From Acidobacteriota bacterium (GTDB lineage: Bacteria; Acidobacteriota; UBA6911), in contig OY761556.1 of NCBI GenBank assembly GCA_963664705.1, forward strand, positions 4,512,001-4,576,000: a stretch of 64,000 nucleotides of DNA. The letters run 5' to 3'. The number at the start of each line of letters is the position of its first letter. The stretch's first letter is position 1. The position numbers and the translations under genes were made by a program. This document shows positions 50,211 to 53,929 of this stretch, one piece after another. The notes beneath the pieces are model-generated. The model searched no databases. It saw nothing but the letters and a program-made list of their open reading frames with translations, and was not told the DNA's origin.

Positions 50211-50777
50211 ATGATGAGATGTAGCCCCACATTCGGGAGAAGCAGATTCATAGCATGGGTGCCCTTGATTCTGCTTCTCTATACCAATCCAGCCTTCAAC
50301 GCTCCAGCCGTAAAAAGCCGGACATCGAAAGCCCGACCTCGCATCAAAGCCGTCAGCACTATTACCGCAGAAATGCTGAGCGAACTACTGAAGGTCCATA
50401 ATTCCATCCGGTCCGGGGTAAACCTGCCGCCGCTTCAATGGTCCGCGGAACTGGCGGCCTTCTCTCAAAAGTGGGCAGATACTCTCATTTTGCGAAATGG
50501 CTCCGGCCATAACCCCAACACTCCATACGGAGAGAACATCTTTGTCACGGGGCCCGGATCCACTCCGGCCAGGGTTGTCCGGGAATGGGAATCCGAATCC
50601 CGTGACTACAGCTACCGCACCAATGCCTGCGCCAGTGATGATTGCGGACACTATACTCAGATTATATGGCGCAGCTCTCGAAGGGTAGGATGCGGCGTTG
50701 CACGCACCCCTCGGCGCGAAGTCTGGGTCTGCAGCTACGATCCCCCTGGCAACTACCGCAACGAGTGGCCTTATTAG
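50211..50777 (+). CDS. CAP/SCP (PR-1-like) domain protein
   Basis: HN..R, L.W...LA, GEN, GHYTQ..W, VGC, C.Y.PPGN. Confidence 0.9.
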   Translation: MMRCSPTFGRSRFIAWVPLILLLYTNPAFNAPAVKSRTSKARPRIKAVSTITAEMLSELLKVHNSIRSGVNLPPLQWSAELAAFSQKWADTLILRNGSGHNPNTPYGENIFVTGPGSTPARVVREWESESRDYSYRTNACASDDCGHYTQIIWRSSRRVGCGVARTPRREVWVCSYDPPGNYRNEWPY

Positions 50778-50800
50778 CCTATCGGAGTCCGGCGGGATTG

Positions 50801-50968
50801 CTATTTGTGTATTTCCTCTTCCTTTTCGGTATCTTTCAAAGCAGATTTGAAATTCCGTATCCCCTCTCCAAGCCCCTTGCCCAACTGTGGGATTTTGTTT
50901 ACTCCAAAGATAAGAACAACGATTGCCAGAATGACGAGCAATTCGCCCATACCCAATGATCCAAACAT
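50801..50968 (-). CDS. tatA: Twin-arginine translocase TatA/E subunit (55 aa)
   Basis: Not in the ORF track. [41 protein letters not shown]...; GGAGG RBS. Confidence 0.92.
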
Positions 50969-51003
50969 AAAACCTCCATCCCTTCGTTCAATGCCAGCGA
51001 AAG

Positions 51004-51234
51004 TTACTTTGCTATTTCAGTTGCGGTCGGCGTTTTCTCGGCTGCGGCCACTGCAGCCGTTTTCTCTGCACTCACCTCTTCTTCCCAGGTCTTGACCAGG
51101 TCGCTGGAGGCCTTTTTGAATTCGGCAATACCCTTTCCAAGGGACTTGCCAATTTCGGGAAGCTTTTTGGGACCGAAAACAATCAAGGCAATGACAAAGA
51201 TGACAATCATCTCCTGAATACCAAGATTACCCAT
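51004..51234 (-). CDS. tatA: Twin-arginine translocase TatA/E subunit
   Basis: G..E...[25 protein letters not shown]. Confidence 0.95.
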
Positions 51235-51342
51235 GATTACCTCTCTTTTTCGTATTACTGGTACGGTGGTTCGGAACTGCCCGGATAGAGCTATTCGAGA
51301 GGTGTCCTCCAGAAGGCCCCATGCAGCAGTAAAATGAAACTT

Positions 51343-52062
51343 TCAGATCGCAGAAATGATGGGTGGGCCGCGAGGTATGAGGCGGAAAAGTCGACCCGGA
51401 AGGCTGTCAGCAACCGGACGCTCAGCAAGGATCTCACGCAGGTCCGGGTCGGCAAACAGAGCCGCTGCCTCCGGTTTCTCACAAGCTATCTGGGGAGGAT
51501 TCAGCAGTAATTCTCCATCCAATCCCAGGCGAATATCCTGAACGGTTTCCGACGCGGCGAAGCCGGATTCATCACGGAAGAGGTTTTGATCGGCAGGCTC
51601 GAATTTGCCGTTTCCCCTGCCCAGCCATACGGCTACGGGAGTCGAGCCGATAGGGCTGCGCACAAGAATGTCGCTGATCGCATCGTTATTGACGTCACAG
51701 ACATGGACCGTGACTACATCCACGTGCGTGGGAGGGCGCAGAGTGGTTAGCTCCGAACGAGTGCTGAGTGCGATGACAATCCTGTATCCATTGCCCGCAA
51801 TCCGCGCGGCGATAAAGTCGGGCCGTTGATCGCCGTCAATGTCTTCCGCCACTGCAAGGGTACCGGGCATGAGGCCCGCACCGGCGGCGGCCCGCAGTCG
51901 CAAAAGGTTGGGAGCCTCTGTATCTGTTGCGGATGCTTTCCAGGCGATGGAACAGACAACCAGAAGTGAGAGAACTGCGATTCTCAAAAAAATGGATGTG
52001 CATTTTTTTGAAGTACCTTTGGCAAGGTTAACCAATCGCATTGCTTTTGATACCTGGATCAC
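51343..52062 (-). CDS. Secreted FG-GAP/VCBS-repeat protein ending in RGPP (candidate arrest-peptide leader)
   Basis: Hydrophobic signal ending in ASA; DIDGDQRPD and DVNNDAISD loops; WLG.G.G.F; C-terminus LIPRGPPIISAI. Start uncertain (52062 or 52041). Confidence 0.7.
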   Translation of the reverse strand: MIQVSKAMRLVNLAKGTSKKCTSIFLRIAVLSLLVVCSIAWKASATDTEAPNLLRLRAAAGAGLMPGTLAVAEDIDGDQRPDFIAARIAGNGYRIVIALSTRSELTTLRPPTHVDVVTVHVCDVNNDAISDILVRSPIGSTPVAVWLGRGNGKFEPADQNLFRDESGFAASETVQDIRLGLDGELLLNPPQIACEKPEAAALFADPDLREILAERPVADSLPGRLFRLIPRGPPIISAI

Positions 52063-52207
52063 ACTCAGATGATAGCTGCCCTATCACCGGCAATCAATCA
52101 GGGCCGACAATTCTGTGGGAATTTTAATACATGTGCCCTTGGGGATATTTCATCCGGAGGTCATTGTGTTTCATCCCAGACGCGGATCCCTGTGATATGA
52201 TCCGGAG

Positions 52208-53005
52208 ATGCAAAACATCGTTCTCATTCGTGGATGCGGCGATGTGGGTTCTGCCGTAGCCTGCGTCCTTTTTAGGGCCGGATATGCCGTTTTCATTCAC
52301 GATTCAGCGCAGCCCACCGCCACTCGTCGCGGGATGGCTTTTGCGGATGCGGTTTTTGAAGGGAGCGTTGAAATGGAAGGCATCCAGGGAATCAGAATGG
52401 ATGACCCCGCCATGATCTCCGCTTCGCTGAGAACCAGAGACATCATCCCAGTGACCTCTCAGGATCTGACAAGCCTTCTTGAAAAACTGAAGCCGGATAT
52501 CCTGGTGGATGCCCGCATGAGAAAACACGATCAGCCGGAAACACAGATCGCTCTGGCATCCTTCACCATTGGGCTAGGGCCCAACTTCACTGCAGGAAAG
52601 ACAGTCCACGCTGCTGTAGAAACAGGGTGGAACGAGGAACTCGGAAAGGTAATCTGGCAGGGCACGACTCGTCCGCTGGAAGGCGAGCCGCAAACCATTG
52701 GAGGCCACGCCCGGGACCGTTATGTCTACGCCCCCGTTGGAGGCATTTTCCGAACTGCTCTGCGCATAGGAGACGAGGTCACTGCAGGCCAGGAGATTGC
52801 AAGAATCGGAGACGCCGTCCTCTCCGCTCCGATAGACGGAATGCTGCGCGGCCTGACGCACGATGGTGTGCCGGTTAAGATAAAAACAAAGGTGATCGAG
52901 GTCGATCCGCGAGGCCGCGAGGCTCCGATTACCGGAATTGCAAAGCGTCCCGGAAAAATAGCCGCGGGTGTCCTGGAAGCCCTGAACGAACGACACAGAA
53001 GGTGA
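52208..53005 (+). CDS. YqeB / selenium-dependent molybdenum hydroxylase system protein-like
   Basis: IRG.GD..S.VA..L, RR..AF..AV, VDARMRK, IGLGP.F.AG, G.LRGL, VDPR. Confidence 0.8.
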   Translation: MQNIVLIRGCGDVGSAVACVLFRAGYAVFIHDSAQPTATRRGMAFADAVFEGSVEMEGIQGIRMDDPAMISASLRTRDIIPVTSQDLTSLLEKLKPDILVDARMRKHDQPETQIALASFTIGLGPNFTAGKTVHAAVETGWNEELGKVIWQGTTRPLEGEPQTIGGHARDRYVYAPVGGIFRTALRIGDEVTAGQEIARIGDAVLSAPIDGMLRGLTHDGVPVKIKTKVIEVDPRGREAPITGIAKRPGKIAAGVLEALNERHRR

Positions 53006-53041
53006 TTTCCGCACTTTTCAGAATGAAGGAGAATCGCATCG

Positions 53042-53929
53042 ATGAAGCAACGAGCCGGATTCATTTGCGTCATTGTGTTGGCAGCCAGCGTCATCGCGGT
53101 TGCTATTGCCCAGGATAAAGAAGCATCCAAGCCTGATGGCCCACAAGACTGTATTGCCTGTCATCAGTCGGGAGGCAATTTCGTACGGAATTATCAGATG
53201 TGGCAAAAGTCCGGACACAGCAAAGCGCTAAGCCTGCTCGCCAAAGCACCGCAGGCATCTCCCGACTGCTATAGCTGCCACTCGGATGAAGGGTTCAAGG
53301 CCAAGAGACTCGGCAAGAAAGTGGATGTTGCTCAGAAGGACAGCTTCAACACAATTACTTGTGTGACCTGCCATCATCTCCCTCACGACAGCAAGTATCC
53401 CCGACAACTGGTGGATGATCCGGAAACGCTCTGTACATCCTGCCATACGCAGAGGGCGGTGTTGCAGGGAAAAGGCGGCAAGGGGATGGACGAGTTTCGC
53501 AGTTTTCATTCAGCGGTCGATTGCATCAGCTGCCACATGAGTGAAACGAATCACCTGATGAAGGTTATCCGCCCCGACGACCCCGATGTATCCGACAAAC
53601 GAAATGACACCTGTACAACGTGTCACAAGGACAACAACCGCAAGGCGCGCCTCGCGCAGCTGCAGGGATGGCAGAAATCCTATAAGGAAGGCATGGATCC
53701 TCTCCAGGCAGACCTGACGGCAATAAGCGCGGCACTCAAGACGAACCCGTCTCTTCTTGACGAGGCGGCAAAGGCGAAGCTGAGTGATGTGCGCTTCAAC
53801 CTGTCGATCCTGGTGAGAGACGGCTCTCAGGGTGCCCACAATATTGATTTGACGGCGGAGATTCTGTCGCGGTCAGCCAAGGATTTGAAGGAAATCAAAG
53901 CAGCAGCGGGATTGGACAAAGGCAAATAG
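53042..53929 (+). CDS. Periplasmic hexaheme cytochrome c
   Basis: Signal peptide and six CxxCH motifs (CIACH, CYSCH, CVTCH, CTSCH, CISCH, CTTCH); DGS.G.HN near the C-terminus. Confidence 0.9.
   Translation: MKQRAGFICVIVLAASVIAVAIAQDKEASKPDGPQDCIACHQSGGNFVRNYQMWQKSGHSKALSLLAKAPQASPDCYSCHSDEGFKAKRLGKKVDVAQKDSFNTITCVTCHHLPHDSKYPRQLVDDPETLCTSCHTQRAVLQGKGGKGMDEFRSFHSAVDCISCHMSETNHLMKVIRPDDPDVSDKRNDTCTTCHKDNNRKARLAQLQGWQKSYKEGMDPLQADLTAISAALKTNPSLLDEAAKAKLSDVRFNLSILVRDGSQGAHNIDLTAEILSRSAKDLKEIKAAAGLDKGK

Follow-up and report, generated by a model that had tools for sequence, protein, structure and literature searches.

How could the expression of tat genes be placed under the control of a stalled ribosome? 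The export-monitoring leaders known so far regulate Sec and YidC, both of which exert a pull on the nascent chain, and Tat moves folded, released proteins. Tat cannot pull, and stall-based control of tat genes would therefore need a different input. The question is raised by a locus in a 64,000-nucleotide stretch of an Acidobacteriota genome of lineage UBA6911 (assembly GCA_963664705.1, contig OY761556.1, positions 4,512,001 to 4,576,000), here called the window, in which an open reading frame (ORF) for a small, secretory-looking protein whose translation ends in LIPRGPPIISAI* lies upstream of two genes of the TatA family. An earlier note, made from the letters of the stretch, had proposed that this protein, the leader in what follows, is a ribosome-arrest leader controlling the pair. 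As predicted from sequence, it is probably an arrest leader of the RAPP class that has been recruited to Tat, and it is likely to switch on the tat pair when its own export or folding beyond the membrane is slow. The locus offers a candidate for the missing input, namely the folding of an exported, predicted metal-binding domain at a distance that has been measured in engineered force profiles.

The end of the ORF, the signal peptide and the two FG-GAP stretches are as the earlier note described them. The N-terminus has a basic n-region, a hydrophobic helix (residues 13-36 in an AlphaFold model) and an AxA motif (by inspection, without a signal-peptide predictor). Pfam FG-GAP_3 matches the leader in two stretches (40.9 bits, cut-off 26.9), and the Pfam search returned FG-GAP families only, with no DUF2946. 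The model has eight strands, with a per-residue confidence (pLDDT) of 86-93 over residues 61-150 and of less than 50 at residues 163-212, within the tether that joins this domain to the C-terminal motif. Structurally it comes closest to integrin propellers (Z 8.7, rmsd 4.0, 120 residues aligned); two-blade-sized lectin chains are among the weak matches (ranks 45 and 48), and Foldseek gave no match at E<=0.001. The Asp-rich loops are D67-D75 and D116-D124, and we infer that they bind Ca2+ because Asp is conserved at loop positions 1, 3, 5 and 9. In integrins, Ca2+ is the ligand of the Asp-rich AB loops of FG-GAP domains; DxDxDG loops may also accept other cations (PMC8023676), and as such folding of the leader domain may be cation-dependent. 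In the Atlas, 22 top matches carry FG-GAP families, with scores up to 0.97; the best three are clusters of 223-234 residues, known by annotation, and the matching clusters are mostly from Acidobacteriota where the taxonomy is known. At least one member of the family is annotated as a VCBS-repeat protein.

Conservation of the C-terminal motif is in agreement with an arrest-type leader. Four homologue searches returned short single-domain relatives together with long multi-repeat FG-GAP proteins, and the long ones were dropped before counting (137 of the 150 matches listed for the single-sequence search, 4 of 18 and 3 of 20 in two other searches). R[S/G/A]PP stands within the final 40 residues of all 40 short proteins, the query included (RSPP in 20, RGPP in 14, RAPP in 6). 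The profile searches contained this motif and so were biased toward it; the single-sequence search was less exposed to this bias, and each of its 12 non-self short matches has RSPP. After addition of nine locus translations, the resulting 49 sequences were filtered to 31 at less than 60% identity, and in these R224, P226 and P227 are 100% conserved, as are D116, D120, D124, G145 and F147, while D67, D69, D71 and D75 are 90-97% conserved. Of 5,333 long ORFs in the source genome, 4 contain RGPP, two of them near the C-terminus, and 15 contain the control AGPP, none near it. Conservation of the motif in these sequences exceeds chance. The expectation that RGPP itself is conserved thus holds for its Arg and two Pro residues and fails for its Gly, RGPP being a minority form in the tat-linked clade (RSPP in 12 of 13). 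In the motif codons of 14 loci, the Ser of RSPP is AGC or AGT in all nine RSPP cases and never TCN; these codons are one base from the Gly codons GGC and GGT, and RSPP and RGPP are therefore interchangeable by a single transition.

A second expectation, of a fixed distance between motif and stop codon, was not borne out: this distance varies from 2 to 21 residues in 49 sequences, and is 33 in a broken copy (L051). What is fixed instead is the distance from the FG-GAP domain. Measured from the Phe that closes the second blade to the Arg of the motif, it is 77 residues in 28 of 39 measured leaders, 76 in seven, 75 in two and 74 in two, with four leaders unmeasurable by the distance pattern. Over residues 156-222 the mean identity of the 31 sequences to the query is 16%, and the mean frequency of the top residue is 0.28. 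That the tether keeps its length but not its sequence would be in keeping with a ruler. The confident domain of the model ends about 71-76 residues before the predicted P-site Pro. In SecYEG, about 50 extended residues span to the periplasmic end, and periplasmic folding of LepB pulls at about 70 residues from the peptidyl-transferase centre (PTC; bioRxiv 2021.02.06.430026); folding forces of PhoA also reach the PTC (PMC7513700). By these features, the leader family consists of Acidobacteriota proteins in which a signal peptide is followed by two FG-GAP blades, then by a tether of little sequence conservation, and lastly by R[S/G/A]PP at the C-terminus.

The leader lies directly upstream of a tatA-family gene in all five loci of its clade that have downstream DNA, these being the window, L006 from the same genus, whose single tat gene has a repeat-like stretch behind it, close to where the contig ends, and the metagenome contigs L049, L050 and L051, with tandem tat pairs; a further contig, L048, ends inside the leader and so gives no downstream context. 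In a tree built without the motif, the tat-linked leaders fall on one side of a branch (support 92/91, present in 90% of bootstrap trees), and in a larger leader tree the five tat-linked rows are spread across three sub-branches of an 18-row group (SH-aLRT, the approximate likelihood-ratio test, 93). The first Tat partners of the leaders are separated from the core and other accessory copies by a branch of support 99, in an alignment of only 62 columns. Both window tat genes are TatA_B_E in Pfam and exceed the tatAE profile TIGR01411 (65.7 bits for gene 1 and 66.6 for gene 2, cut-off 53.9). The source genome, of 6.89 Mb, has four TatA-family genes, namely the window pair, one adjoining tatC and one alone. 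Gene 1 is a paralogue of the tatC-linked subunit (65% identical) and gene 2, in the tree, of the stand-alone tatA type. The description of a tatA-tatA pair 108 nt downstream is therefore right as to the gap and the family, and is to be amended in that the genes are of two different subtypes, so that the cassette supplies both small subunit types without TatC. Gene 1 may fill a TatB-type role; it scores below the TatB TIGR01410 cut-off (46.7 against 56.5 bits), as does the tatC-linked core copy (44.7).

Synteny with tatA, which the earlier note suggested testing, extends to these five loci and not to the family, which is not Tat-specific, since a sister branch heads an efflux adaptor. Other members lie upstream of CusB/HlyD-type adaptors (L036, L038 and L135), of a TolC-like gene whose profile scores are below cut-offs (L008), of an Ig-domain protein (L007) and of unannotated secreted-looking ORFs (L117, L118 and L124); the neighbour in L013 is cut after 61 residues, and its tree label, TolC, is assumed from its relative L008. 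The source genome itself has a second member, of 210 residues with RSPP (L031:1465-2097, minus strand, equal to G000:C1 709594-710226), in which the first Asp loop is degenerate and which precedes a Crp/Fnr gene by 156 nt. Members with context are first in their unit, usually with long spacers before export-related genes. Among the top 30 downstream neighbours of RAPP ORFs, efflux adaptors, TolC and Crp/Fnr are enriched and no tat gene is present (Fig. 4B source data of PMC12992588). Most likely, the family serves as a general sensor of the envelope or of a cation, and separate lineages have put it in front of different export genes, one clade in front of extra Tat subunits. We consider doubtful the broader proposal that these are widespread Acidobacteriota force-sensor leaders, in which a two-blade Ca2+-binding domain and a 77-residue ruler would report cation-dependent folding in the periplasm to the ribosome via SecY and of which one clade would set the dose of extra Tat subunits.

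A promoter-like element precedes the leader (Table 1). It is the sole promoter-like match in 50600-52400, where 1.2 would be expected by chance, and its GATTG and three positions of the -10 element are invariant in six of six aligned leader-upstream regions, including that of the efflux-linked L036. The pattern common to these regions is TTG...17...TAnnAT. In a scan for sigma70-type promoters and intrinsic terminators the spacer has neither, and the independent promoter that the earlier note named as evidence against its proposal is thus absent as far as the sigma70 type goes. The ATG at 52041, which is also the start in the annotated record, is more likely the start of the leader than the GTG at 52062, because the latter lies at about the predicted transcription start. 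The regions upstream of three related leaders (L048, L050 and L051) have in common a word like AGATTAGAGTTT, some 35 nt before the -35 element, and TGTGA close to +1; both are possible regulator sites.

The mechanism that we propose starts from the observed architecture, motif conservation, fixed spacing, leader-tat order in five loci and upstream promoter-like element. A ribosome translating the leader would very probably stall with the two Pro codons in its P and A sites, since in mutagenesis of ApdA and ApdP the strongest arrest core is RGPP, and RSPP gives partial arrest (PMC12992588). The chain would at this point be threaded through SecY, and with a tether of about 70-77 residues the end of the FG-GAP domain would be just in the periplasm; folding there would supply the releasing pull, probably in a cation-dependent manner, a step that we regard as reasonably likely. 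That stalling then acts in cis on the tat pair would be expected with good but lesser assurance than the stall itself. The weakest step is the output, in which the stalled ribosome would cover a C-rich loading site for Rho, so that transcription continues into the tat genes; even granting the rest, we lean slightly against it. The link to Tat would be indirect, with an envelope or cation signal adding to the supply of Tat subunits, rather than feedback from Tat activity. The core of this mechanism, which is a stall at R[G/S]PP, release by export or folding, and expression of the tat pair while the ribosome is stalled, is held tentatively, as plausible and just short of probable.

Rho attenuation as in CruR is a weak favourite for the output, ranked slightly above masking of the Shine-Dalgarno (SD) sequence because SD and footprint pairing is ordinary, as set out below, and because of a C>G stretch and two Rho genes. 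In each of the five tat loci the motif lies at the centre of this stretch (C/G 35/17, 37/26, 35/19, 37/22 and 37/26 per cent), and in 12 of 14 leaders its C>G bias reaches the 90th percentile or higher among 4,739 control gene tails. Both Rho genes of the source genome are full-length (G000:C1 643143-644378 and 3893937-3895178) and exceed the TIGR00767 cut-off, and CruR sets a precedent with a spacer of 162 nt (PMC9426467).

Several observations weigh against this interpretation. Compared with 452 Pro-rich tails, the top 5% in C>G bias is reached by only six of the 14 leaders and one of the five tat-linked ones, the window being at 12%; the bias is partly due to Pro codons, and the stretch is only modestly unpaired (0.37-0.47). 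A RAPP-like motif is not sufficient alone for arrest, and RSPP, the majority form of the family, is only partly permissive for it (both PMC12992588). Binding of ligand by CutF can prolong a stall rather than release it (PMC9973294), and the sign of the leader switch could therefore be either. The same sensor stands upstream of unrelated genes, and so a link between a cation and Tat has no evident reason. The tat link itself is seen at five loci, of which L050 and L051 are near-copies of each other, and 14 of the 18 rows of the tat-linked leader clade are without gene context. Within the class, the close leader subfamily occurs in three of 137 genomes and is tat-linked in two, and four other tandem tat pairs in the genus have no leader. 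Finally, the leader of L051 is broken (it carries an in-frame stop, a deletion shifts its frame and its own stop codon is lost), while its tat pair is intact; the RSPP frame reads on into the tat start (L051:2095-2820). This broken leader may reflect decay or an assembly error.

The leader-tat cassette is also rare, being found in two of 30 genus genomes and two of 137 class genomes. In a genus survey in which 54 of 86 tat matches were examined, a leader was present only in the window and in L006/L065. A search for further tat-linked loci with the single leader protein gave one unrelated locus only, and a search of the 137 class genomes gave no additional one. A profile search of the phylum (401 genomes, insensitive, with seven candidates scored per genome) found distant members only. 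A DNA pattern of motif, gap and tatA matched in 26 of the 401 genomes, and a tatA was present at five loci apart from the window, in no case with an in-frame leader; one RAPP among these matches lies in a shadow frame of a cytochrome c gene. Two of the four leaderless tandem pairs follow an ORF that by inspection resembles a response regulator. In L095, L096 and L097, accessory tat pairs lie behind two-component-looking genes, the same cassette with a different controller. In many genus genomes a stand-alone tatA lies behind a translation-factor-like gene of about 630 residues that looks by inspection like selB (L090-L093, L103-L105 and L107-L109).

Among the alternatives, that suggested by the earlier note was a translational switch like that of SecM, in which the footprint of the stalled ribosome would unmask the SD of the first tat gene or, in a variant, its start codon. 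Both SecM and CutF set precedents, and the complementary words are present where they had been placed: GAGAGGT in the SD region, ACCTCTC in the spacer (51297-51303) and TACCTC in the codons entering RGPP (51372-51377). The 7-nt ACCTCTC is rare, with 0.0045 expected per 130 nt, a post-hoc figure. In ensemble folding, however, it prefers a local CTGGAGG (P=0.98) and pairs with the SD at P=0.013 only, and TACCTC pairs with the SD at P=0.010; the local hairpin is absent from four homologous spacers. The best duplex between footprint and ribosome-binding site (RBS), at -9.8 kcal/mol, is equalled in 25% of other windows of the leader ORF and 13% of 600 control gene tails, and such duplexes are ordinary in all five tat loci, so that the complementarities do not go beyond chance. 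A 221-nt region at the locus folds no better than shuffles (z +1.29), nor are the spacers of the tat loci more stable than shuffles (z -0.96 to +0.83, with -0.48 for the window). These spacers differ in sequence and in length, with 100-174 nt from P site to ATG across the tat loci; alignment and shuffles gave no conserved structure, and Rfam no match in four loci. More in favour of a translational switch, the window ensemble, in which 6.7 pairs between footprint and RBS are expected, has the Pro-Ile codons (ACCCAU) paired to the tat start (AUGGGU) at P~0.5, with a shifted register at about 0.36, and blocking the footprint lowers the opening energy of the window RBS in all 18 settings (mean ddG 1.1 kcal/mol, range 0.09-4.21). 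In one such setting, however, the window value of 0.68 compares with 0.22 +/- 1.87 in controls, of which 29% are as high (194 of 263 control gene pairs computed), and the four homologous tat loci have means of mixed sign (+1.25, -0.12, -0.43 and +0.40). Similarly, the Met-Gly start that permits start-codon pairing in the five tat loci is also found in core copies without a leader. The SD/anti-SD switch as first drawn was rejected, with both pairings at about 1%, an unconserved spacer and a stall effect within the control range, and the wider class of SecM-like switches is unlikely here. At the second family member of the source genome, L031, the footprint:RBS duplex of -14.8 kcal/mol is in the top 2-3% of controls, and an SD-masking switch may therefore apply there.

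The protein could instead have a function of its own in the periplasm, where it would bind cations, perhaps as an assembly of several two-blade units; its motif would pause synthesis of the protein for folding or turnover without regulating the tat genes, which would merely be co-transcribed. Such a role would agree with loop Asp and propeller Gly residues conserved as strongly as the motif, with the two-blade-sized lectins among the weak structural matches, with tat pairs that are intact where the leader is broken or absent, and with the failure to find a conserved RNA element. A pause that times the protein's own synthesis would not require the first position in the unit, whereas members are found first in unit, behind a promoter-like element conserved in all six aligned regions and with long spacers before export-related genes, which is the pattern described for regulatory RAPP leaders. 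We judge this role improbable. Alternatively, the polarity may be that of CutF, with binding of a periplasmic cation (Ca2+ or another metal) prolonging the stall, and the downstream genes induced by the ion instead of by a shortage of it or by slow export. The four contexts with efflux adaptors or a TolC-like protein are those in which metal induction would make sense, and both the binding of other cations by DxDxDG loops (PMC8023676) and the example of CutF would allow it. However, a fully exported folding domain accounts for the spacing better than does retention of the motif in the SecY vestibule, the arrangement proposed for CutF, and the tat, Crp/Fnr and Ig-domain neighbours have no evident link to metals; this polarity is quite improbable. 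It is harder still to credit that the leader is a Tat substrate which directly monitors Tat activity, as SecM monitors SecA. Its position upstream of tat genes in five loci and the Lys-Lys of its n-region would suit such a monitor, but RRx[FLM][LIMV] is absent from the first 45 residues of all 40 short homologues, the Lys-Lys is spaced unlike the Tat consensus and is not conserved in the homologue alignment, and the family also heads genes other than tat. Tat, moreover, carries folded and released proteins, and with a leader that has no twin-arginine signal it is not the puller. The suggestion that the pull comes from Sec or from folding is thus supported, and a stall released by export and folding of the FG-GAP domain remains our preferred account. 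The coordinates of the features discussed are collected in Table 1.

Table 1. Positions in the window of the leader, its parts, the tat genes and the signals between and before them.
Feature	Position	Strand	Basis or remark
Leader ORF, 232 aa	51343-52041	-	239 aa if translation began at the GTG at 52062
Predicted Sec-type signal peptide, residues ~1-38, ending KASA	51928-52041	-	Inspection and model helix
Two-blade FG-GAP/VCBS-type beta domain, residues ~60-155	51577-51864	-	Pfam FG-GAP_3, model, conservation
Tether, F147-R224	51373-51600	-	Length conserved, sequence poorly so
RGPP arrest-type motif	51361-51372	-	R, P and P invariant in homologues
Predicted P-site Pro codon	51364-51366	-	Analogy with ApdA/ApdP (PMC12992588)
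Predicted A-site Pro codon	51361-51363	-	Analogy with ApdA/ApdP (PMC12992588)
Spacer between leader and tat genes, 108 nt	51235-51342	-	C>G-rich stretch begins over the motif
Local hairpin, ACCTCTC:CTGGAGG	51297-51312	-	Pairing P=0.98
SD of first tat gene, GAGAGGT	51239-51245	-	
TatA-family gene 1, 76 aa	51004-51234	-	tatAE profile
TatA-family gene 2, 55 aa, 35 nt past gene 1	50801-50968	-	tatAE profile
Sigma70-like element upstream of leader, TTGATT-17-TATCAT	52069-52097	-	Pattern match and conservation; putative promoter

On the other side of the leader, at 52208-53929 on the plus strand, the window has a divergent yqeB-like gene of the selenium-dependent molybdenum cofactor type and a multiheme cytochrome c gene, and these genes adjoin the leader in L050 and L051 too. 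Elsewhere in the source genome, two small secretory-looking ORFs are candidate arrest leaders of other families: one ends in RGPPLLLS*, 28 nt before a 461-residue ORF (G000:C1 2826460-2826810, plus strand), and the other in RAPPVFLLS*, 117 nt before a 952-residue ORF (G000:C1 4943371-4943790, minus strand). Run X1 has the whole stretch in one contig without differences, and is possibly the window's own source data. Run X5 has short pieces only, among them a low-depth contig that covers the first tat gene and the spacer and diverges at window position 51349; diverging just before the leader stop, this contig may be a chimera.

The earlier note knew of no arrest sensor for tat genes, and our literature search, which left most subscription papers outside it, likewise found no paper on tat-linked or FG-GAP arrest leaders. 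The word 'tat' does not occur in the main text of three reports on RAPP-class leaders (PMC7897499, PMC10987492 and PMC12992588), and the part of the PMC12992588 supplements consulted, which does not include the RGPP list, has no twin-arginine, Sec-independent, FG-GAP or VCBS entries. The published screen covered only RAPP and RGPP, in ORFs annotated as hypothetical or unknown (PMC12992588); a family that is mostly RSPP, with at least one member named as a VCBS-repeat protein, would tend to escape it. The source of the pulling force for RAPP leaders outside Sec and YidC has been named as an unanswered question (PMC12992588), and a family whose folded domain is defined, whose ligand-type residues are invariant and whose tether is nearly so in length puts that question within reach of direct tests. 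If the broader force-sensor proposal, considered doubtful above, is true, the locus would hold a calcium-gated arrest peptide and a case of stall-based control of Tat, in which folding on the Sec side is cross-wired to Tat capacity.

At the level of sequence the leader has what is expected of the RAPP class, that is, the motif, an N-terminal signal and conserved downstream linkage. Like ApdA, ApdP and the RQH family (PMC7897499, PMC10987492, PMC12992588), it is small, has an export signal at its N-terminus, carries R[AGS]PP close to its C-terminus and is followed on the same strand by a gene for export machinery. It differs from them in that this gene is of the tatA family and not secA, secDF or yidC, in that the regulated pathway would not be the puller, in its folded two-blade FG-GAP domain at a fixed 74-77 residues, and in the predominance of RSPP. 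With CruR, a DUF2946 protein of Bordetella (PMC9426467), it shares a C-terminal RxPP, a long spacer and a module, putatively metal-binding, whose spacing from the motif is set; a C>G bubble also lies over the motif, in the leader partly explained by Pro codons. By contrast, the leader has Asp-rich loops in place of CXXC and DUF2946, with no CXXC conserved in the homologue alignment, and a longer tether. Release in CruR is independent of the signal peptide, and copper is sensed in the cytoplasm (PMC9426467). CutF of Rhodobacter (PMC9973294) is exported by Sec and senses a periplasmic ion co-translationally, as we propose for the leader. In contrast, CutF acts via an SD-masking stem-loop, which is unconserved here, binding prolongs its stall, and it regulates the Tat substrate CutO rather than Tat itself. 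The domain of the leader has the four-stranded blades and Asp-rich AB loops of integrin and bacterial VCBS propellers (PMC8023676), but it has two blades rather than a closed propeller, Gly 6 of DxDxDG is replaced in the query, and it is fused to a tether and an arrest-type motif. Unlike monitors of the SecM type, the leader is not a substrate of the pathway encoded downstream, as no twin-arginine motif is present in any of the 40 short proteins. The class of arrest leaders to which it would belong is known; what is probably new is the build of the sensor and the pathway that it targets.

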